From a bacterium (GTDB taxonomy: Bacteria; Patescibacteriota; Patescibacteriia; UBA1558; S5-K13): a stretch of DNA of 30,534 bases. This document shows positions 1 through 27,308 of the stretch, in pieces (within the stretch, counting starts at the first letter, position 1; the number at the start of each line of letters is the position of its first letter). Made by a program: the position numbers and the translations under genes. The stretch covers positions 1-30,534 of the forward strand of contig JAKPTO010000051.1 of NCBI GenBank assembly GCA_029555085.1, written 5' to 3'. Under the pieces are notes generated by a model. The model was not told the origin of the DNA and did not search any database. It saw only the letters and a program-made list of their open reading frames with translations.

Positions 1-631
1 TAATAATATTTATCCGGCACAGAAACCTTTTTTATTTAACAATAATCATACGAACCAAGTACAAAAATTATTAAATATAAAAGTCCTAATAAATTCTGTA
101 AAATAAAAGTATCCTAAAAAATAAAATAGGATTACTATTTATTTGCGCGAACCAAATAAACAATAAGTTCTGCGCCAAATAAATATTATTAAGATTTTGT
201 CAAAGAACATTTAAACCTCAAAGCTTGGTTTTAATTCCTCAGTATCAGATTACTATCTTTTGATAATAATCTGATTAAAGGGTGGGAAGCGAGCGACCAA
301 GCACGCTTCCCATAACCATTGCTGATACGGATTTCTGGTATTTATGTCATAGCGCCCCAGAAGATATTGACTCAGTGGGTCAAATATCACACGGCGCTTG
401 AAGCAACAGCTTCATTCTTCCTCCTTTTCCCGTTGGGGAATGGCGGGGGCGTAGCAGGGTTGAGCTAGCCCCCTCTTTAAACCTTGTGGTGTTAACCTTT
501 TTTATCCCACGCTAGCCACACCATTTAACCAGCGGGGAATAATTGTTTAGAGGTGAAGGAGGGTGCGGAGAAGTCCCTTCCCAGATTTCCTCGCTCACAT
601 GGAGCAGGAAGCTGGGAGTGGAGGTAGGGGT

Positions 632-1060
632 CTAGGCCTCTTCGACCAAGACCTCCACCGGAGACTCATCCGGCAGATCCTCTGGGATCTCGTTGTCGGG
701 ATCCCGAGGCTCTTCATCCGGAACCTCCAAATTTTCCACGGAGGAGTCCAATCGGACCACCTCCAACCTGAATGAAGAAAGGGAGATCTTGAATCCCCCA
801 ATCTCCATTTCAAAGCTTTCATGTGTGAAAGCCTTGAAAAAAGTTTTAAATCTCTCTCTACCGTCCAGTAGGACGATAGAGAATGGGTTTCCATCCACCT
901 CCTGGATGGAAACCCAGGGATCTGCCACGTACCGAAGTACGAGGCAGATTCTCAGGGTCGGGGTGAGCTGGATTATCCAGCCCTCCCCTAACTTTTCTGT
1001 TTCCTGAGGGCGTATTACCAGGCCCTCAGACAAATTCAGATCAAGGCCTCTCAAAATCAT
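632..1060 (-). CDS. Orphan hypothetical protein (142 aa) with acidic Pro/Asp/Glu-rich C-terminal tail; GC-rich relative to host
   Basis: ATG at 1060 preceded by GGAAAAGGAGGAGAC (strong SD); TAG stop at 634-632; about 50% GC versus about 25% in neighbouring genes (by eye); no recognisable family. Confidence 0.7.
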   Translation of the reverse strand: MILRGLDLNLSEGLVIRPQETEKLGEGWIIQLTPTLRICLVLRYVADPWVSIQEVDGNPFSIVLLDGRERFKTFFKAFTHESFEMEIGGFKISLSSFRLEVVRLDSSVENLEVPDEEPRDPDNEIPEDLPDESPVEVLVEEA

Positions 1061-8751: not shown

Positions 8752-9999
8752 CTAATCTAATAAGTGTATAAATAAAGCTGAGCGAAGTTTTGGCTCAAAC
8801 CATGTTGATTTAGGTGGCATAGTTTCCCCTGCATCGGCAATTTTCATTAATTCCTCAACAGAAGTTGGAAACATTGAAAAAGCTACTGCCTCTCCATTAT
8901 CAACTCTTTTCTTTAATTCATCTAATCCCCTGATTCCGCCAACAAAATCAATTCTTTTATCTTTTCTAGGGTCTTCTATTCCTAAAATAGGATAGAGTAA
9001 ATTATTCTGTAATATTGAAACATCGAGCGATCCTATAACATCACTGCTATCATATGAATCATTTTTTGCTGTTAATTTATACCAAGCGCCATCAATATAC
9101 ATTCCAAAAGTATGTTGCTCACTTGGTTTAAAAGCATCAGTTGTAGAATATTCCTCTATATCAAATTTTTCTTTTACTTTTTCAAAAAATTCTTCTTTTG
9201 ATAAGCCATTTAAATCTTTTACTATTCTATTATAGTCCATGATGTATAATTGATTATGTGGAAAAATCACTGACATAATAAAATTATATTCCTCATTACC
9301 CGTATGATTTGGATTTTTTTCTCTTTTGCGTTGCCCTAAAATTGCACCAGCGGCACTTCTATGATGACCATCAGCAATATATAAATAATCAATGTTAGAA
9401 AATATATTTTCTATTTTTGAATTTACTTCATCATCATCAATTTTCCATAAAGTATGCGATATTCCATCATCTGCCGTAAAATCATAAACTGGTTCATTGC
9501 TTTTTATAAAATCATTTACAAGCATATCCATATCTTCTCTTGCGCAATATGTTAGAAAAATTGGTTCTGTATGAGCATTACAAGTTTCTATATGTTTAAT
9601 CCTATCTTCTTCTTTATCAACTCTGGTTTTCTCATGTTTTTTTATAATATCATTTTCATAGTCAACTACACTTGCTCCACCAACAATTCCAATTTCAGTA
9701 ACACTTCCCATAACTAATTTATAAATATAAAAGACTGGTTTTTCTTCTTGAAAAAAAATTCCATCTTTAATCATCTTTTCAAAATTTTCTTTTCCTTTTT
9801 GATAAACTTCTTCACTGTATGTATCAATTCCTTGCTCCAAATCAACTTCTGCTTTTGTAACATGAAGAAAACTGTTTGGATTGCCATTTACTAATTTTCT
9901 TGCCTCTTCTGAATTTATAACATCATAAGGAACGCAGGCAACATCGCTCACTAACTCTGGTTTTGGCCTTAATGCCTTAAAAGGTTTTACTATTACCAT
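8752..9999 (-). CDS. DUF1015 family protein
   Basis: PFKALRP, PYDVI, KKHEKT, YIADGHHRSA, MPPKSTWFEPKLRS motifs. Confidence 0.92.
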   Translation of the reverse strand: MVIVKPFKALRPKPELVSDVACVPYDVINSEEARKLVNGNPNSFLHVTKAEVDLEQGIDTYSEEVYQKGKENFEKMIKDGIFFQEEKPVFYIYKLVMGSVTEIGIVGGASVVDYENDIIKKHEKTRVDKEEDRIKHIETCNAHTEPIFLTYCAREDMDMLVNDFIKSNEPVYDFTADDGISHTLWKIDDDEVNSKIENIFSNIDYLYIADGHHRSAAGAILGQRKREKNPNHTGNEEYNFIMSVIFPHNQLYIMDYNRIVKDLNGLSKEEFFEKVKEKFDIEEYSTTDAFKPSEQHTFGMYIDGAWYKLTAKNDSYDSSDVIGSLDVSILQNNLLYPILGIEDPRKDKRIDFVGGIRGLDELKKRVDNGEAVAFSMFPTSVEELMKIADAGETMPPKSTWFEPKLRSALFIHLLD

Positions 10000-10051
10000 A
10001 ATTTTTTTATTTAATTATAAGTATTTTATATTTTAACATAAATAAACTAAT

Positions 10052-10086
10052 AAAAACAACCCCAAATAGTTAAATTTGAGGTTGTT
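10052..10086 (-). terminator. Terminator of the 23S-5S transcript
   Basis: Minus strand AACAACCTCAAAT...ATTTGGGGTTGTT followed by a T-run immediately after the 5S gene. Confidence 0.7.
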
Positions 10087-10091
10087 ATATA

Positions 10092-10199
10092 ATTGGCAAT
10101 GACCTACTTTCTCACTGACGTAATATCATCGGCGCTGGTGAGCTTAACTGCCAGGTTCGGAATGGAACTGGGTGTTGCCTCACCGCTAAAATCACCAAA
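10092..10199 (-). rRNA. rrf: 5S ribosomal RNA (short, about 108 nt)
   Basis: Minus strand TTTGGTGATTTTAGCGGTGAGGCAACACCCAGTTCCATTCCGAACCTGGCAGTTAAG...GCGCCGATGAT...AAAGTAGGTCATTGCCAA; ends approximate. Confidence 0.93.
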
Positions 10200-10287
10200 T
10201 TGCTAATATGAAAATAATTCATATTAGAATATCTAATGATTTTATTACAAAATATTACCATTTCTTAAAAGAAATGCTTTATGTTTC

Positions 10288-13391
<3,104 letters not shown>

Positions 13392-13483
13392 CACTGAAAC
13401 ATAAAATATTCCTTTATGTATTCAGTAATACCTTGTAATGTTTAATTAAAAGTCATTTAATTAAATTTTACTCTGTTAATAAA

Positions 13484-13495
13484 TTTTCAAAGAAC
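13484..13495 (-). promoter_or_regulatory. rrn antitermination boxA, preceded by a boxB-like hairpin at 13500-13517
   Basis: GTTCTTTGAAAA about 95 nt upstream of the mature 23S 5' end. Confidence 0.7.
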
Positions 13496-13667
13496 TTTTT
13501 TGCCTAAATATAAGCAATAATTAGTAGTAAACAGCACATAAAGTGCAAGAAATTCCGCATAAGATTTCCCTAGTTTAGAAATTGATTTCCACCAAAAAAA
13601 TCTCAGAAAGAAAACCCGATATTACTACTAGTTACTGATTATATTTGTTAATATGCTTAATTGAGAT

Positions 13668-13691
13668 AAAAAAACCGCTCTATCGAGCGGT
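13668..13691 (-). terminator. Intrinsic terminator in the 23S leader (candidate attenuator)
   Basis: Minus strand ACCGCTC-GATA-GAGCGGT plus T-run, between the predicted promoter and the 23S gene. Confidence 0.65.
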
Positions 13692-13804
13692 GACTAAAAT
13701 TAGATTTAGAATAATTAAAATCCGCTCGGTTTTATAGTTATTGAATTAATTTTTTTCACTATTTTCGACAAGTTTTTATCTTAATTTTTAAATTATTTTA
13801 TCTC

Positions 13805-13813
13805 TGTGGATAA
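13805..13813 (-). promoter_or_regulatory. Perfect DnaA box at the predicted 23S transcription start
   Basis: TTATCCACA on the minus strand. Confidence 0.5.
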
Positions 13814-13821
13814 CTTATATA

Positions 13822-13849
13822 AGTATACACCATTTAAAAAATTTGTAAA
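13822..13849 (-). promoter_or_regulatory. Predicted promoter of the unlinked 23S-5S unit
   Basis: TTTACA (13849-13844), 16 nt, TATACT (13827-13822); lies just downstream of the 13855-13883 hairpin. Confidence 0.6.
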
Positions 13850-13854
13850 GAGGC

Positions 13855-13883
13855 AAAATACACCCAAAAAATGGGCGTATTTT
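13855..13883 (-). terminator. Hairpin or terminator separating the pil-cluster transcript from the rRNA promoter
   Basis: Minus strand AAAATACGCCCA-TTTTT-TGGGTGTATTTT. Confidence 0.55.
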
Positions 13884-14001
13884 TAATAAAAATATATTTA
13901 TATATTTATACAGGCGCTATTTAAATTTAATTATTCCATAATTACAGTAAATTATTTTGTCAAAATAACGCAAAACAAAATAGTGAATCCCTCTATAATA
14001 A

Positions 14002-14682
14002 CTATTTAATTGACTCAAAAGTTTGAGCCACTTCGTTCAATTTAACACAATACATTGAACCTACATCACAATGATAAATAACCTGATAAATATCTCTACC
14101 TATATTAATTATATAATTTTTAACAAAAATATTATCTTTGCTACTTTCCGTTGACCAAAAAACGATACTGTTAATTGTTTCTTTATTTAATTTTTGAATA
14201 TCAAAATGTTTAACCAGCCAATCATCAAATCTTTTTTCTTTAAATGTTTCCTTTTTAATATCTAAAAAATTATTATCATCATATTTAACTATTATCTTGC
14301 CAGATTTTTCATCAAAACTCTTTGAAGAGTCATTAAAATAAGAAATTTTTATTTTCCATGGTTCGTAAATGTATTCTATTTTTGTTTCTTCTAGTTGCTT
14401 CTTTACGCCATTCTCTACGGCAGTTGTTAAATTATCATCATCATTATTATTTATACCATTTTTAATTGCTGATTTTATAGTTTCAACATCATCACCCGGA
14501 GAATAATCATTAAAAATTTCAGTATCAGAATTCCAAACATCCATAAAAGATGTTTTTATATCAGACATTTCTTCGCCCACTAATTTTAAATCAAAAGATG
14601 AAAGTTGTTTTATAAACAACCATATCAAAAAAATAGAAAAAACAACTAGAAAAAGAATAAATAATTTAAATTTTGATTTCAT
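14002..14682 (-). CDS. Hypothetical membrane-anchored protein
   Basis: 226 aa with an N-terminal hydrophobic helix; 2 nt from the upstream gene. Confidence 0.8.
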   Translation of the reverse strand: MKSKFKLFILFLVVFSIFLIWLFIKQLSSFDLKLVGEEMSDIKTSFMDVWNSDTEIFNDYSPGDDVETIKSAIKNGINNNDDDNLTTAVENGVKKQLEETKIEYIYEPWKIKISYFNDSSKSFDEKSGKIIVKYDDNNFLDIKKETFKEKRFDDWLVKHFDIQKLNKETINSIVFWSTESSKDNIFVKNYIINIGRDIYQVIYHCDVGSMYCVKLNEVAQTFESIK

Positions 14683-14684
14683 TT

Positions 14685-15323
14685 CTATTGTTTATTTAAA
14701 ATAACGAGTTTCATGTCGTTTTGTGGAAGACTCTCTTTAGAAATTTTAAATTCATCCAATTTTTCAGGACTAAGTCCAATTTCATTTATAAATTTATCAA
14801 CGCCATCAAGTGAAATTTTTACACCTGGGCATTTATAATGCATTGGTATTATTACTCTTGGCTCTATTTCATTTATAATTTTTATGGCTCCATCAGAATT
14901 CAATGAATATGTGCCACCAACTGGGACAAGTAAAACATCTACATTCTTTAAAAATTCCATTTGTTCATCTACTAAATCATCTTGATTAAAATCTCCCAGG
15001 TGAGCCACGGTTATCCCAGCTTCTTCTATTAAATAAATGGTTATTGCACCTCTTTCAAGACCATTCTTATTATCATGATATGCTCTTTTACCATAAATAA
15101 ATGTTCCTTTCATTTCATATTCTCCGGGTCCATTTATTATAAGTGGATTGCCTGTTATTGCGGAAATATTGTTATGATCATCATGGTTATGTGTCACCAA
15201 AACAGCATCTGCTTTTACTTTTGGCATTTTAATACCTATGGAATCAGAATATGGATCTATCACCAAATCTATTTCTTTACATTTTATTTTGAAACATGAA
15301 TGTCCTAACCAGCTTATCTTCAT
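14685..15323 (-). CDS. MBL-fold metallo-hydrolase
   Basis: WLGHSCF, IDPY, THNHDDH (HxHxDH), HLGD, PVGG, IPMHY. Confidence 0.92.
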   Translation of the reverse strand: MKISWLGHSCFKIKCKEIDLVIDPYSDSIGIKMPKVKADAVLVTHNHDDHNNISAITGNPLIINGPGEYEMKGTFIYGKRAYHDNKNGLERGAITIYLIEEAGITVAHLGDFNQDDLVDEQMEFLKNVDVLLVPVGGTYSLNSDGAIKIINEIEPRVIIPMHYKCPGVKISLDGVDKFINEIGLSPEKLDEFKISKESLPQNDMKLVILNKQ

Positions 15324-23525: not shown

Positions 23526-25256
23526 CTACTGTTTTGTAACTCTTAATATTTCTTCGATTGTTGTTATCCCGCTTTTCGCTTTTAAAAATCCGTCTTCTAT
23601 CATTGTTATCATATTTTTTGTTTTCGCATGTTCTCTAATTTTTTCTGCTCCGGCATTGTGCATAATTAAATCAGACAACTTCTCATCATTTTCTAATATT
23701 TCATATATTCCTATTCTACCCTTATAACCAGTTTTTTTACATTTATCACAACCCTTGCCTCTATAAAATAATACATCCTTTAATCCATTTTTTGCACTAG
23801 ATATTGCTTTTTCTCTTTCTAGTGTATTCAAAATCGATTGTATATCCATTTGTTTCTCTAATTCTTTAATCAATTTATCATCTATGGTGTAACTTGTTAT
23901 ACAATCTGGACAAATTTTTCTCAATAATCTCTGCGCTATTATTATATTAAATGTTGAAGCGAGTAAAAAAGTAGGCACTCCCATTTCTAAAAGACGAGGA
24001 ACTGAAGTTGGAGCATCATTCGTGTGAAGAGTTGACAAAACCAAATGTCCAGTAAGCGCAGAGTGAATTGCTATCTCAGCAGTTTCTTGATCTCTAATTT
24101 CTCCAACCATTATAATGTTTGGGTCTTGTCTAAGCAAAGCCCTGAGTCCAGATGCAAAAGTAAATCCTATTTTTGGATTAATCTGAGATTGATTAACGCC
24201 TTTCATTCTATATTCAATAGGATCTTCAATTGTTGAAATATTTACCTCAGGAGTATTTAATATATTTAAAATAGTATAAAGAGTTGTAGTTTTACCACTT
24301 CCCGTAGGTCCGGTTACCAAAATCATTCCGTGTGGTTTTTCTATGTTTCTTTTTATAATTTCAAGTGCTCCCGGGTTTAATCCTAATTGCTCCAATGACA
24401 AAACTTTTGACTTTTCATTTAAAAGACGCATTACAATTTTTTCTCCATCAAAAGTTGGAATTACAGAAACTCTAAACGAAACTTTAAATTTATCAGAAGA
24501 AATTTTAAATCTACCATCTTGTGGCATTCTATGTTCGTCGACTTTCAAATTAGCTAATATTTTTATTCTACTTATTATTCCTGATTGGATATATTTAGGA
24601 AATTTCATCATGTTGTATAATATTCCATCCACTCTAAATCTAATTAAAACATTCTTTTCTTCTGCTTCTATATGTATATCAGAAGCGCCTTCTAAAATTG
24701 CGTGTTCTAATAGTGTATCAACAACTTTGGTTATTGGAATATCGTATGCTAATTTTTCAAGATCGCTGGAGTCCTCTTGATTAACTTTTTTATCGTCTTC
24801 TGTTAAATATTTAAATTCTGCACTAAGACTCTTTCTGTAATTTTTAAGAGCTTCTTTTATGGCTTCTGGAGTTGCAATATTTTTAGCAATTTTAAAATTT
24901 AAACTTTTTTCTAAAAATTCAAAAATTTCTAAATTATATGGATTGGAAGTGGCTACTTGAATTGTTTTCTCATCACTATCAAATGCTATTATATTATTAT
25001 TGACAGCTATGTCTTCTGAAATAAGAGATAAGGTATCTTTTCTAATTTTAATTTTTTTTAAATCTACAAATGGTAAATTCAAAAATGTAGCGCATGCGCT
25101 ATAAAATATATCTGGCTTTATAATTCCATTATCGAATAAATATTGTAGAATGTCTTTTTTTTCTTTCTTCGCTTTCTCTTTGGCTTTTAAAAATTCTGCC
25201 TCCGGAAGAATTTGTGAAAAAATTAAAATATCTCTAACTTTTTTTTCTGGGAACAT
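23526..25256 (-). CDS. pilB: Type IV pilus assembly ATPase PilB (GspE/PulE family)
   Basis: ASDIHIE, PQDGR, Walker A GPTGSGKTTTLY, TIEDPIEY, LRQDPNIIMVGEIRD, TGHLVLSTLHTND, tetracysteine CPDC/CDKC. Confidence 0.95.
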   Translation of the reverse strand: MFPEKKVRDILIFSQILPEAEFLKAKEKAKKEKKDILQYLFDNGIIKPDIFYSACATFLNLPFVDLKKIKIRKDTLSLISEDIAVNNNIIAFDSDEKTIQVATSNPYNLEIFEFLEKSLNFKIAKNIATPEAIKEALKNYRKSLSAEFKYLTEDDKKVNQEDSSDLEKLAYDIPITKVVDTLLEHAILEGASDIHIEAEEKNVLIRFRVDGILYNMMKFPKYIQSGIISRIKILANLKVDEHRMPQDGRFKISSDKFKVSFRVSVIPTFDGEKIVMRLLNEKSKVLSLEQLGLNPGALEIIKRNIEKPHGMILVTGPTGSGKTTTLYTILNILNTPEVNISTIEDPIEYRMKGVNQSQINPKIGFTFASGLRALLRQDPNIIMVGEIRDQETAEIAIHSALTGHLVLSTLHTNDAPTSVPRLLEMGVPTFLLASTFNIIIAQRLLRKICPDCITSYTIDDKLIKELEKQMDIQSILNTLEREKAISSAKNGLKDVLFYRGKGCDKCKKTGYKGRIGIYEILENDEKLSDLIMHNAGAEKIREHAKTKNMITMIEDGFLKAKSGITTIEEILRVTKQ

Positions 25257-25392
25257 ATTTTTATTTTATTTATAATATTATTTTATCATAATTTTTAATA
25301 TAAAAATAGATGCGATATTTTATTTTCTATGGTTTTATTTTTAATTTCTTGATAAAATTAATCTATTAAAAAAATAATTTTATATTAACAAA

Positions 25393-25641
25393 ATGAAAAA
25401 TATACTTTATGGAATTTTAGTATTAGCCTGCGGATTTCTAGTTGTTTGGAAGGCTAAGTGGATAGTTGATAATTTTGGAAGAAATGCATGGGCCGAAGAA
25501 AAATTAGGAACATCCGGTGGAACAGTATTTCTATATAAAGTAATTGGAATATTGGTTGTGTTTTTTGGAATGTTAATGATCACTGGATTAAAAAATGATT
25601 TTTTAATGGCAACTCTTGGTAAAATGTTTTTTCTAAATTAA
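25393..25641 (+). CDS. Small two-TM membrane protein
   Basis: 82 aa with two hydrophobic helices flanking FGRNAWAEEKLGTSGG. Confidence 0.8.
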   Translation: MKNILYGILVLACGFLVVWKAKWIVDNFGRNAWAEEKLGTSGGTVFLYKVIGILVVFFGMLMITGLKNDFLMATLGKMFFLN

Positions 25642-25815
25642 AAAAATTAGAAAAATTTTTATTTATATATAGATTTTTTTAAAAAAATAGTTTATAATTA
25701 ATATACACTTTTAAAAATAAAAATTTATGGAGATGCATGTCTTCACAAATAAATAAAAATTAAAAATTAATTAATTTTCCTGCTAATTTTAAAAATTAGT
25801 GGGAGCCGAAAAAAA

Positions 25816-25962
25816 ATGGCTACTAAGAAAAAAGCAAAAAAGACAGTAAAAAAAGCCACAAAAAAACCTGCAAAAAAGGTTGCAAAAAAACCTGTTAAAA
25901 AGACAGTAAAAAAAGTTGCAAAAAAACCTGCAAAAAAGGTTGCAAAAAAAGGCAAAAAGTAG
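25816..25962 (+). CDS. Histone H1-like Lys/Ala/Pro-rich basic protein (48 aa), not in ORF track
   Basis: MATKKKAKKTVKKATKKPAKKVAKKPVKKTVKKVAKKPAKKVAKKGKK*; GGGAG at 25801-25805; terminator downstream. Confidence 0.8.
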   Translation: MATKKKAKKTVKKATKKPAKKVAKKPVKKTVKKVAKKPAKKVAKKGKK

Positions 25963-25986
25963 TTTGTGGTAAATTGTCTATAAAAA

Positions 25987-26023
25987 GTAAAAATCCCTAA
26001 CCTTGTCGTGTAGGGATTTTTAC
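25987..26023. terminator. Bidirectional terminator between the H1-like gene and EndoQ
   Basis: GTAAAAATCCCTA / TAGGGATTTTTAC perfect 13-bp inverted repeat between convergent genes. Confidence 0.75.
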
Positions 26024-26042
26024 ATTATACAAAAAATATAAA

Positions 26043-27308
26043 TTAAAATAATTTTTCTTGAACTTTTTTATTTTTAATTTTTTCTAAATCAGAAAAAATT
26101 TTTACAATTCCATATTCTCCATCATATCCCGGTATAACACTCATCTCTCCTTTACGCATTCTTATTATTGCATCAACTATTGTTTGATTTTTTATTAAAC
26201 TTCTAAGCTCGTCTTCTGTTTTGTTTAGAAGTACATCAAATTCATTGCCAACATTTTTAATAATATCAAAATAAATAATATCAACTTTCTTGGTAGTGGA
26301 TCTCTGATTGATTGCTTCTCCGATAACTTCTTTTAAACCAACACAATGTTTATATGGAATAAATTTATTTTTATTTTTTTCTACTTCTTCTTTGTTTCTA
26401 TCTGATAAAACAGAAACTCTATTCAAAACTCCGAATGTTAATTCTTTTTTACAGACAGGACAAATTTTTATTTTTTTAGATGTTAATGGATCAATACTTA
26501 CACCGCAAGCTCTATGTCCATCAAAATGATATTTGCCTTCTTCGGGATAAAACTCTATTGTATATAAAAATTTTTTCTTATCTTTATTTTTTATTGTTTC
26601 ATATATTTCGTCATAGCTAAAATTTTGTAAATCAAAAACATTTGCCTCTCTGCCTATTCTTTCTAAACTATGAGAATCAGAATTAGAAACAAGCGTATAT
26701 TTATCAAGCGACGAAACAAACCAATTCATATATGGATCTGATGAAAGACCAGTTTCAAGAGCATAAATATTTTTTGCATACTTACCAAAACATTCTTCAA
26801 TAGAATCAAACCCAGATTTAGAACCAAGTACTGCAAACCACGGAGTCCAAATATGCGCAGGAATTATTAAACTTTTTTTATTTACTTCAAGTGCAATACC
26901 AGTTAATGTTTCAGCTGAGAGTCCTATAATTGGTCTCCCATCTGATTTCAAATTACAACCCCTATCACAAAGCTCTTTGTTAAATTTTTTAACCGACTCT
27001 ATGTCTGGCATCAAAATTACAATATGAACTCTTCTGGTTTTATCATTTTGTTTATAAATACATGAAATTTCAGATGACAAAACAAATCTTACATCACTGT
27101 CATCATTTCTTAATTTATAAAAACCGTTTTCTAAATCAATCATTTCGTCTTCAAACTCTTTTAACCACAAAGAGTGAGTAAAGTCTCCTGTGCCCAATAA
27201 ATTAATACCTTTTATATTGCACCAGTGTGATAAATTTCTAAAATTAATTTGTTTAGAACATGACCTAGAAAATCTAGAATGTATATGTAAATCCGCCACA
27301 ACTATCAT
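26043..27308 (-). CDS. Endonuclease Q family protein (PHP domain plus Zn-binding region)
   Basis: DLHIHSRFS, GTGDFTH, PAHIWTPWF, ETGLSSD, SNSDSHS, EEGKYHFDGHRAC, CPVC, PGYDGEYG. Confidence 0.9.
   Translation of the reverse strand: MIVVADLHIHSRFSRSCSKQINFRNLSHWCNIKGINLLGTGDFTHSLWLKEFEDEMIDLENGFYKLRNDDSDVRFVLSSEISCIYKQNDKTRRVHIVILMPDIESVKKFNKELCDRGCNLKSDGRPIIGLSAETLTGIALEVNKKSLIIPAHIWTPWFAVLGSKSGFDSIEECFGKYAKNIYALETGLSSDPYMNWFVSSLDKYTLVSNSDSHSLERIGREANVFDLQNFSYDEIYETIKNKDKKKFLYTIEFYPEEGKYHFDGHRACGVSIDPLTSKKIKICPVCKKELTFGVLNRVSVLSDRNKEEVEKNKNKFIPYKHCVGLKEVIGEAINQRSTTKKVDIIYFDIIKNVGNEFDVLLNKTEDELRSLIKNQTIVDAIIRMRKGEMSVIPGYDGEYGIVKIFSDLEKIKNKKVQEKLF

Follow-up and report, generated by a model that had tools for sequence, protein, structure and literature searches.

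We analysed a contig of 30,534 nt (JAKPTO010000051.1, positions 1 to 30,534 of the forward strand, assembly GCA_029555085.1, from a bacterium of the Patescibacteriota; this whole stretch of DNA is called the window below), in which a 23S and a 5S rRNA gene lie together on the minus strand, and examined the leader that precedes the 23S gene. We propose, with a probability of roughly 0.6, that access to the 23S-5S unit is gated by a ribosome-dependent transcription attenuator, which would occupy the minus-strand stretch from about 13849 to 13668. In this stretch a promoter is followed by a short open reading frame (ORF) and then by a hairpin with the form of an intrinsic terminator. The last codons of the ORF hold one strand of an antiterminator helix whose other strand is the 5' arm of the hairpin, and a ribosome at the end of the ORF would be expected to decide which of the two helices forms. 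Sequence comparison and predicted folds establish the parts, their arrangement and conservation, the two exclusive pairings and the way in which the ORF meets the antiterminator; from these we infer that the ORF is translated, that the hairpin terminates, that translation leads to termination, and what this means for the cell.

The hairpin consists of ACCGCTC, GATA and GAGCGGT (13691-13674) and is followed by a run of seven T's that ends at 13668, as a first-pass annotation of this DNA had described it. A consensus scan called it terminator-like (7 pairs, 5 of them G-C), and its folding energy in isolation is -12.6 kcal/mol (z = -4.3; none of 200 shuffles equals it). Further upstream, CGAGCGG at 13728-13722 is, also as annotated, the exact complement of CCGCTCG at 13690-13684, so that the terminator 5' arm doubles as the 3' strand of an antiterminator helix (-12.0 kcal/mol, z = -3.9, 0 of 200 shuffles equal). 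The two helices had been called mutually exclusive, which the shared strand 13690-13684 and the folds bear out, and their stabilities are nearly equal. When the nascent RNA was cut at 13684, the antiterminator was present in both the minimum free energy and the centroid structures, and an untranslated leader should therefore form the antiterminator first. The impression that these GC-rich 7-mers stand out from their surroundings was also correct: on both strands of the window the 7-mer occurs twice, as the antiterminator strand and as the complement of the terminator 5' arm, both inside the element, against 0.27 occurrences expected from shuffles (only 1 of 100 shuffled windows had two or more). 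The full pattern of GCGG...CCGC...GCGG plus a T-run is found once in the 1.02-Mb genome, at this leader. We did not find a Rho RNA-binding domain in the genome, which is 99.4% complete, and intrinsic termination is thus the available route.

The only consensus promoter of the leader lies directly upstream. It is the top promoter-like site on the minus strand within 9500-15000 and aligns with promoters of relatives that match 11-12 of 12 consensus positions; transcription would start at about 13816-13814. In most of the 53 order-level genomes compared, this upstream promoter scores 12 of 12. In the interval from the hairpin to the 23S gene, the best promoter-like site reaches 8-10 of 12 and its position is not conserved (48 order-level rows with the right hairpin); the score of 12 given for a 'downstream' site in L024 and L065 belongs to the leader's own promoter rather than to a separate one. 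In the window itself, a -10 hexamer without a mismatch is present downstream of the attenuator, at about 13651-13646, together with a -35 that is poor (9 of 12). We rejected this as a conserved second promoter, because the last T of the -10 is not kept in the window's family, and a P2 of low strength may exist in the window's genome. No separate conserved 23S promoter was found downstream of the hairpin in the order-level leaders scanned.

A DNA search of 61 related genomes supplied 23S upstream regions, to which further regions were added later; the sequences compared are kin to each other, and the counts given here and below overstate their independence. Leaders share a common order, in which a consensus promoter is followed after about 105-215 nt by a CCGC/GCGG hairpin with a U-run, then by a long hairpin, boxA and the 23S gene. 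Every one of the 53 order-level genomes has the CCGC/GCGG hairpin and its U-run in the interval from the consensus promoter to the 23S gene (48 identified by script; L004, L024, L065, L077 and L079 by eye). An intrinsic terminator is thus predicted between the ORF and the putatively controlled gene throughout the order. In a class-level sample of one genome from each of 28 other families, the hairpin is found between a promoter of 11-12 of 12 and the 23S gene in 23. A wide pattern scan, limited to one genome per species, gave at least 120 matches. Among the 80 matches listed, 51 are followed on the same strand, at a distance of 50-555 nt, by a 23S 5' end, and the record titles of these 51 name many Parcubacteria-type candidate groups and Saccharibacteria. 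The other 29 of the 80 have no 23S 5' end in the stretch compared; a few of these are cut by a contig end (for example L136, which has a 13-codon ORF), and the remaining loci, among them some from Vibrio and Acinetobacter, look like chance matches or terminators unrelated to this one. The antiterminator complement, whose loss outside this genome would have counted against a switch, is likewise kept far beyond it. In the same comparison no such hairpin follows the promoter in the 16S leaders of five out of five relatives; a boxA-like motif is present in these leaders. A covariance model of the form with a 10-codon ORF (see below) gave exactly one match per genome in 42 of 86 order genomes. The same model proved too narrow as a class-wide finder (2 of 151 genomes), and 23S upstream regions were read instead. 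Ten records with metagenome-assembled genome (MAG) labels of Gammaproteobacteria, Thermoplasmatales, Omnitrophica or Thermodesulfobacteriota (L125, L128, L137, L150, L163, L167, L172, L180, L186 and L193) share the leader ORF, the terminator and the 23S gene after it with the Patescibacteria records, and these contigs may be mis-binned.

We followed the two helices in two alignments, A1 for the 10-codon type (17 sequences) and A2 for the window's type (22 sequences). The antiterminator helix of the 10-codon type has 11 bp and directly adjoins the stop codon, and its 3' strand enters the terminator 5' arm. The A1 antiterminator pairs in 83.8% of cells, compared to 56-58% when slid by one column, and contains 17 compensatory cells, a score that 0 of 500 shuffles reach; the A1 terminator pairs in 88.8% of cells. 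In A2 each of the seven pairs at the core of the antiterminator is kept in 19-22 of the 22 sequences, compared to 27-46% when slid, and the window's genus has a G/C pair where most relatives have A/U (columns 14/70), which is a compensatory change. In the A2 terminator 85.4% of cells are paired and 7 are compensatory; in one genome this terminator is changed on both sides, and the antiterminator still pairs through a G-U. An alternative helix that shares a terminator strand is thus found in both types and covaries in the 10-codon type. Of the three motifs proposed for a conservation check, the terminator and the antiterminator were kept and the upstream stem (TCG/ATAGT...ACTAT/CGA), which had been suggested as able to sequester part of the antiterminator, was not. 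It is present in the letters of the window and is weak there, and it pairs in 40.6% of cells compared to 40.8% in shuffles (8 of 9 family sequences, L006 being excluded for its 100-nt insertion), with slid versions pairing as well in relatives. Shuffled sequences fold as well as the RNA of 13815-13692 does (z = 0.07). In L006 (G010) the insertion of about 100 nt lies between the 5' motif and the leader ORF, and the rest of the element is intact.

The first-pass annotation had compared this layout to riboswitch and ribosomal-protein-leader attenuators. The layout of a switch stands, but a short ORF of 18 sense codons had been overlooked, and it makes leader-peptide attenuators the closer likeness. 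Codons 15-17 of the window's ORF are the antiterminator strand. Both here and in relatives a short promoter-proximal candidate ORF, with a start codon and an initiation context, overlaps or abuts the competing strand, and because this conserved ORF overlaps the antiterminator strand a translating ribosome is the most likely sensor. All nine members of the window's family keep a single frame open, the one containing AGC, over 14-18 codons, compared to 0-9 codons in the other two frames (with one exception of 16). The spacing from the start codon to AGC is 45, 45, 42, 45, 42, 42, 39, 39 and 45 nt in the nine members, always a multiple of three, and the stop lies three codons past AGC in every member. 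Multiplied over six lineages, the shuffle probabilities for the family ORF come to about 1.5e-5. Outside the window's family an ATG ORF was identified in 44 of 44 order-level leaders (4 of them read by eye), with its stop 22-41 nt before the hairpin start and a length of 10 codons in 29, 9 codons in 3, 13 codons in 4 and 14-21 codons in 8. Such an ORF is present in 22 of the 23 hairpin-bearing leaders of the class sample; by our reading of the output its ATG lies exactly 13 codons before the stop in about 12 of the 22, and most of these ORFs end in AGC-GGN-stop, where AGCGG is the antiterminator strand itself. A hand count gave an in-frame ATG ORF at 48 of the 51 wide-scan loci with a downstream 23S, among the 80 matches listed. 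A script whose criteria differed somewhat, and which took all loci with the pattern and a stop, found an ORF of 10-16 codons at 49 of 70 loci (36 of exactly 13 codons), compared to 3.5 expected from shuffles.

The position of the ORF end relative to the two helices is also conserved. Across relatives the antiterminator strand lies within the last 2-3 codons or starts 0-5 nt after the stop, and the terminator arm is always more than 20 nt beyond it (23 nt further on in the window). The mRNA footprint of a terminating ribosome would reach the antiterminator strand but not the terminator arm, and this difference in reach suggests that the ribosome acts by masking. The leader ORF has no Shine-Dalgarno site, which is no objection to its translation because the genome hardly uses them (8.3% of crude gene starts compared to a background of 5.3%). 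Gene starts in this genome are A-rich from -6 to -2 with T at -1, and the context of the leader ORF is likewise A-rich.

From these elements we infer the following course of events. RNA polymerase would start at the consensus promoter, make an A-rich 5' UTR of about 44 nt and next transcribe the 18-codon ORF, the last codons of which contain the antiterminator strand. If no ribosome covers 13728-13722 when 13690-13684 emerges, the antiterminator would pair and block the terminator, and polymerase would pass through the long hairpin and boxA into the 23S gene. A ribosome on the last codons or on the stop codon would instead mask the antiterminator strand and leave the terminator arm, 23 nt further on, free; the terminator would then fold and transcription would end at about 13668. 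A lagging ribosome, like an untranslated leader, would give readthrough into 23S. A smaller fraction of polymerases would accordingly reach 23S when initiation-competent ribosomes are abundant and fast, and a larger fraction when such ribosomes are scarce or slowed. Translational capacity would thereby feed back directly and negatively on the synthesis of rRNA.

Several observations weigh against this proposal. ATG is absent from the leader ORF of the nine members of the window's family, in which the earliest possible start following the previous stop codon is TTG in seven and CTG, a rare start codon, in two; these are candidate starts and unproven. In-frame ATG ORFs are missing at 3 of the 51 wide-scan loci with 23S among the 80 matches listed. 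Leader peptides are not conserved beyond Met and the Ser-Gly forced by RNA pairing, and no codon is enriched in the leader ORFs compared. By eye, the congeners L075 and L078 differ by a frameshift in the ORF; both frames are open, with stops 10 nt apart, and the exact frame is therefore not sacred. The A2 antiterminator is near-invariant and its covariation weak: 229 of 500 shuffles pair as well, changes on both sides are seen at only 2 pairs, and its sequence could be conserved for another reason. The U-run is interrupted in the family member L004, and the hairpin was not seen in 5 of the 28 class families scanned. A terminator before the most heavily transcribed gene is costly, and so this one may be inefficient in vivo. 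Finally, the genome encodes RelA/SpoT-domain and DksA/TraR-type zinc-finger proteins. Conventional rRNA control may therefore exist, with no gap that the attenuator is needed to fill, and we rejected the idea that it substitutes for a missing stringent response because these domains are present.

The leader has its own consensus promoter and its own terminator, and might instead be an independent small gene that shares the 23S promoter, with an RNA of about 146 nt or a micropeptide acting in trans and 23S served by constitutive partial readthrough rather than by a regulated choice. There is precedent for such products, since the excerpted text of two studies describes trans-acting attenuator-derived RNAs and leader peptides in Sinorhizobium (PMC6614838, PMC7298713). 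We consider this quite unlikely. The peptides are not conserved, the element occurs once per genome and only before 23S, 23S has no separate conserved promoter, and a conserved, covarying helix that destroys the terminator would have no role.

The other invariant part of the leader is at the 5' end of the RNA, where a motif, TTATCCACA, lies upstream of the ORF. The 3' strand of 16S helix 45 complements, with one wobble pair, the 9 bases at 13812-13804, which overlap this motif; this 16S strand adjoins the anti-Shine-Dalgarno tail, and its letters are the same in all four relatives read. In the 28 leaders of the class sample the motif is found in sense orientation in 10 and in antisense orientation in none, and it is absent from the 16S leaders of the relatives compared. 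Its letters are those of a perfect DnaA box; the genome has 25 perfect copies compared to 12.6 expected, so that one copy is unremarkable alone, and we rejected the DnaA-box reading. A dispersed repeat was likewise rejected, because the 11-nt motif is no commoner in the genome than a reversed control. Pairing of the 5' motif with the antiterminator region, in the manner of strand 1 of trp, was discarded for the window's family (-4.6 kcal/mol, 25% of shuffles as good). Six genomes of one sister family do show this pairing strongly, at -7 to -9 kcal/mol, a value matched by no more than 4.5% of shuffles.

These features raise the alternative that a trans-acting factor sets the switch, either a ribosomal or assembly protein or the 16S 3' end within the 30S subunit, by binding the AGCGGAU-type strand or the 5' motif. 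A free ribosomal protein or a 16S-derived signal was also the sensor suggested in the first-pass annotation, and we found neither supporting evidence nor a structured domain for it. In favor of such a factor, sequence is conserved and not pairing alone, with the GCGG/CCGC core unvaried in 22 of 22 A2 sequences and the 5' motif invariant in 9 of 9 family members, and there is the complementarity to helix 45. However, a strand with two pairing partners is expected to be conserved in sequence anyway, and the 16S complementarity is a single observation without covariation. Nor is there an aptamer-like domain in the stretch from 13815 to 13692, given its shuffle-like z score, or an Rfam match. A permissive Rfam scan of 13396-14003 gave only chance-level hits (best 21 bits compared to a cut-off of 70). 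The leader thus has neither a credible Rfam match (E <= 10) nor the structured upstream fold of a riboswitch aptamer, and the stretch between the 5' motif and the antiterminator is poorly conserved. Of a ribosomal-protein-type leader we saw no structured domain, and noticed short likenesses to 16S helix 45. A trans-acting factor would leave unexplained the start codon, the 10- or 13-codon length of the ORF, its open frame and the multiple-of-three spacing. We therefore regard it as unlikely, and the translating ribosome as the probable sensor.

Between the putative attenuator and the 23S gene lies a long hairpin of which both arms are conserved in the window-family alignment; it may be boxB-like or a processing stem. 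The sequences at the base of its arms are kept family-wide, and a related form is found across the order. It is followed by the motif that we take to be boxA, a name given after the rrn boxA consensus. That boxA lies downstream of the terminator had been pointed out before and agrees with our placement. A hairpin and then a boxA-like motif upstream of rRNA (13648-13505 and 13495-13477) is the arrangement expected of an rrn antitermination leader, and it would account for this downstream part of the leader and not for the terminator/antiterminator switch. The attenuator hairpin stands directly upstream of this very stable, conserved hairpin and boxA, and the E. coli rrnB leader contains a terminator-like pause region. 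Both facts would suit a constitutive pause or folding checkpoint that times Nus loading, RNase III processing or leader folding, with no conditional termination and with the ORF incidental. The excerpts of two reports that describe an action of rrn leaders in RNA chaperoning point the same way (PMC10250234, PMC8632103). Such a checkpoint is very improbable in our view, as it leaves the ORF statistics and the conserved competing helix unexplained, and the 16S leaders in the same genomes have a boxA-like motif but no such device.

Among known systems, the attenuator proposed here most resembles the leader-peptide attenuators of the amino-acid operons trp, his, leu, thr, pheA and ilv of enterobacteria. 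Both combine a short promoter-proximal ORF with an intrinsic terminator, one strand of which can also enter an alternative helix, and in both the position of the ribosome picks, or here would pick, the fold. Unlike these attenuators, the 23S leader has no run of regulatory codons for an end product, its peptide is free to vary except where pairing fixes it, and its target is an rRNA and not a biosynthetic operon. It also differs in having three strands, in the window's family, instead of four. Because there is no conserved anti-antiterminator, the default of the untranslated leader is predicted to be readthrough and not termination.

A second likeness is to leader ORFs that sense the state of the ribosome, described for bmrCD (PMC4191407), mef/mel (PMC4335068), yxjB (PMC6851288) and the toiL uORF of E. 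coli (10.1101/682021). As presented in the excerpts of these sources, the ORF reports on translation itself, not on a single amino acid, and a held-up ribosome favors readthrough, as would be the case here. The same excerpts describe specific stalling peptides and resistance or toxin targets, some of them acting through Rho, whereas the 23S leader lacks a conserved stalling motif, a Rho domain was not detected in the genome and the gene under control would be that of 23S rRNA. With the rrn boxB-boxA-boxC/Nus system, as far as the excerpted text of PMC10250234 describes it, the 23S leader shares its being an rRNA leader with a hairpin and then a boxA-like motif downstream of the attenuator. That system suppresses termination for all transcripts and involves no ORF; the 23S leader, in contrast, has its terminator upstream of boxA, and so out of its reach, and would be coupled to an ORF. 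Ribosomal-protein leaders also tie a choice between terminator and antiterminator to ribosome supply, and L10(L12)4 acts on the attenuator of the B. subtilis rplJL leader, according to the excerpted PMC4538822. They need a structured binding site that mimics rRNA and precede mRNAs, whereas the 23S leader shows no such domain. A literature search (full text, subscription journals not covered) found no leader ORF or regulated terminator before an rRNA gene, in agreement with the earlier remark that no described example was known.

How rRNA synthesis is matched to translational capacity is an old question. In the 23S leader a kind of switch otherwise known only for protein-coding operons would act on an rRNA gene itself, and the device appears to span a whole radiation of ultra-small bacteria with a single, unlinked 23S gene. 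To our knowledge, the 'ribosome feedback' idea developed in E. coli has never been tied to a direct cis-acting device. If the proposal is true, it provides a mechanism for ribosome homeostasis and for the coordination of unlinked rRNA genes, as well as a compact natural sensor of the level of free ribosomes, and translation inhibitors are predicted to raise 23S readthrough. Some Saccharibacteria can be grown in co-culture, and the model is therefore directly testable. More tentatively, a ribosome-to-rRNA loop of this kind may operate across the Patescibacteria, in Parcubacteria-type groups and Saccharibacteria alike, a broader reading that is possible and that we would not yet favor. In such a loop an ORF of 10-18 codons, free of sensor codons, would gauge how readily free ribosomes load and how fast they finish, the three-strand switch would set the fraction of polymerases that enter 23S-5S, and the 5' motif may recruit the 30S subunit. 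If the 5' motif does so, the amount of finished small subunit would set the output of large-subunit rRNA and thereby coordinate the unlinked genes.

The coordinates of the leader and of the rRNA unit are collected in Table 1. The switch had been assigned to the leader of an unlinked 23S gene, and the Rfam genes, the 16S survey and the position of the promoter all agree with this. We did not find a 16S gene in the window's own genome (53 contigs, 99.4% complete), and in five relatives it is on a separate contig or at a distance of 8-15 kb, which leaves 23S-5S as a unit by itself. The protein gene upstream ends in a terminator of its own, which insulates the rRNA promoter. The flanking protein genes are unrelated to the rRNA unit and encode a metallo-beta-lactamase-fold protein, a DUF1015 protein and the products of two ORFs with no Pfam match. 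An Rfam scan of the whole window at gathering thresholds found only the 23S, the 5S and two tRNAs. The 20 sequencing runs that contain the stretch are all DNA metagenomes.

Table 1. Positions of the leader elements, the rRNA genes and the neighboring terminators in the window
Feature	Positions	Strand	Basis or description
Terminator of the upstream protein gene (ORF 14682-14002), intrinsic	13855..13883	-	-16 kcal/mol, z = -5.6
Sigma-70-type promoter	13822..13849 (-35 13849-13844, 16-nt spacer, -10 13827-13822)	-	Consensus scan, 10 of 12
Invariant motif TTATCCACA at the leader RNA 5' end	13805..13813	-	11-nt block invariant in 9/9 family members
Candidate leader ORF, 18 sense codons	13715..13771 (TTG 13771-13769, TAA 13717-13715)	-	Translation
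Antiterminator 5' strand, 7-mer CGAGCGG	13722..13728	-	Exact complement of CCGCTCG 13690-13684
Predicted intrinsic terminator (putative attenuator)	13668..13691	-	7-bp stem, GATA loop, U7
Long conserved leader hairpin, ~145 nt, between attenuator and boxA	13505..13648	-	-42 kcal/mol, z = -6.1
boxA-like motif	about 13477..13495	-	Read from sequence; lies after the 13505-13648 hairpin
23S rRNA gene	10286..13395	-	Rfam RF02541, 2501.7 bits
5S rRNA gene	10091..10199	-	Rfam RF00001, 82.5 bits
Terminator closing the 23S-5S unit	10055..10086	-	Terminator-like site, 13 pairs

A few further features of the window were noted. The 23S match covers 3110 nt compared to 2925 positions in the model, which leaves about 185 nt of extra sequence (insertions or expansions). 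At about 25000-27000 the GC skew switches sign, with the minimum of the cumulative curve near 27 kb, and this may mark a replication origin or terminus; ORFs on the left, the side of the rRNA genes, are on the minus strand, and the two tRNA genes at 28.2-28.4 kb are on the plus strand. The first 1000 nt of the window (1-1000) have a G+C content of 0.44, compared to about 0.26 in the remaining non-rRNA window, and no Rfam family scored above threshold there.

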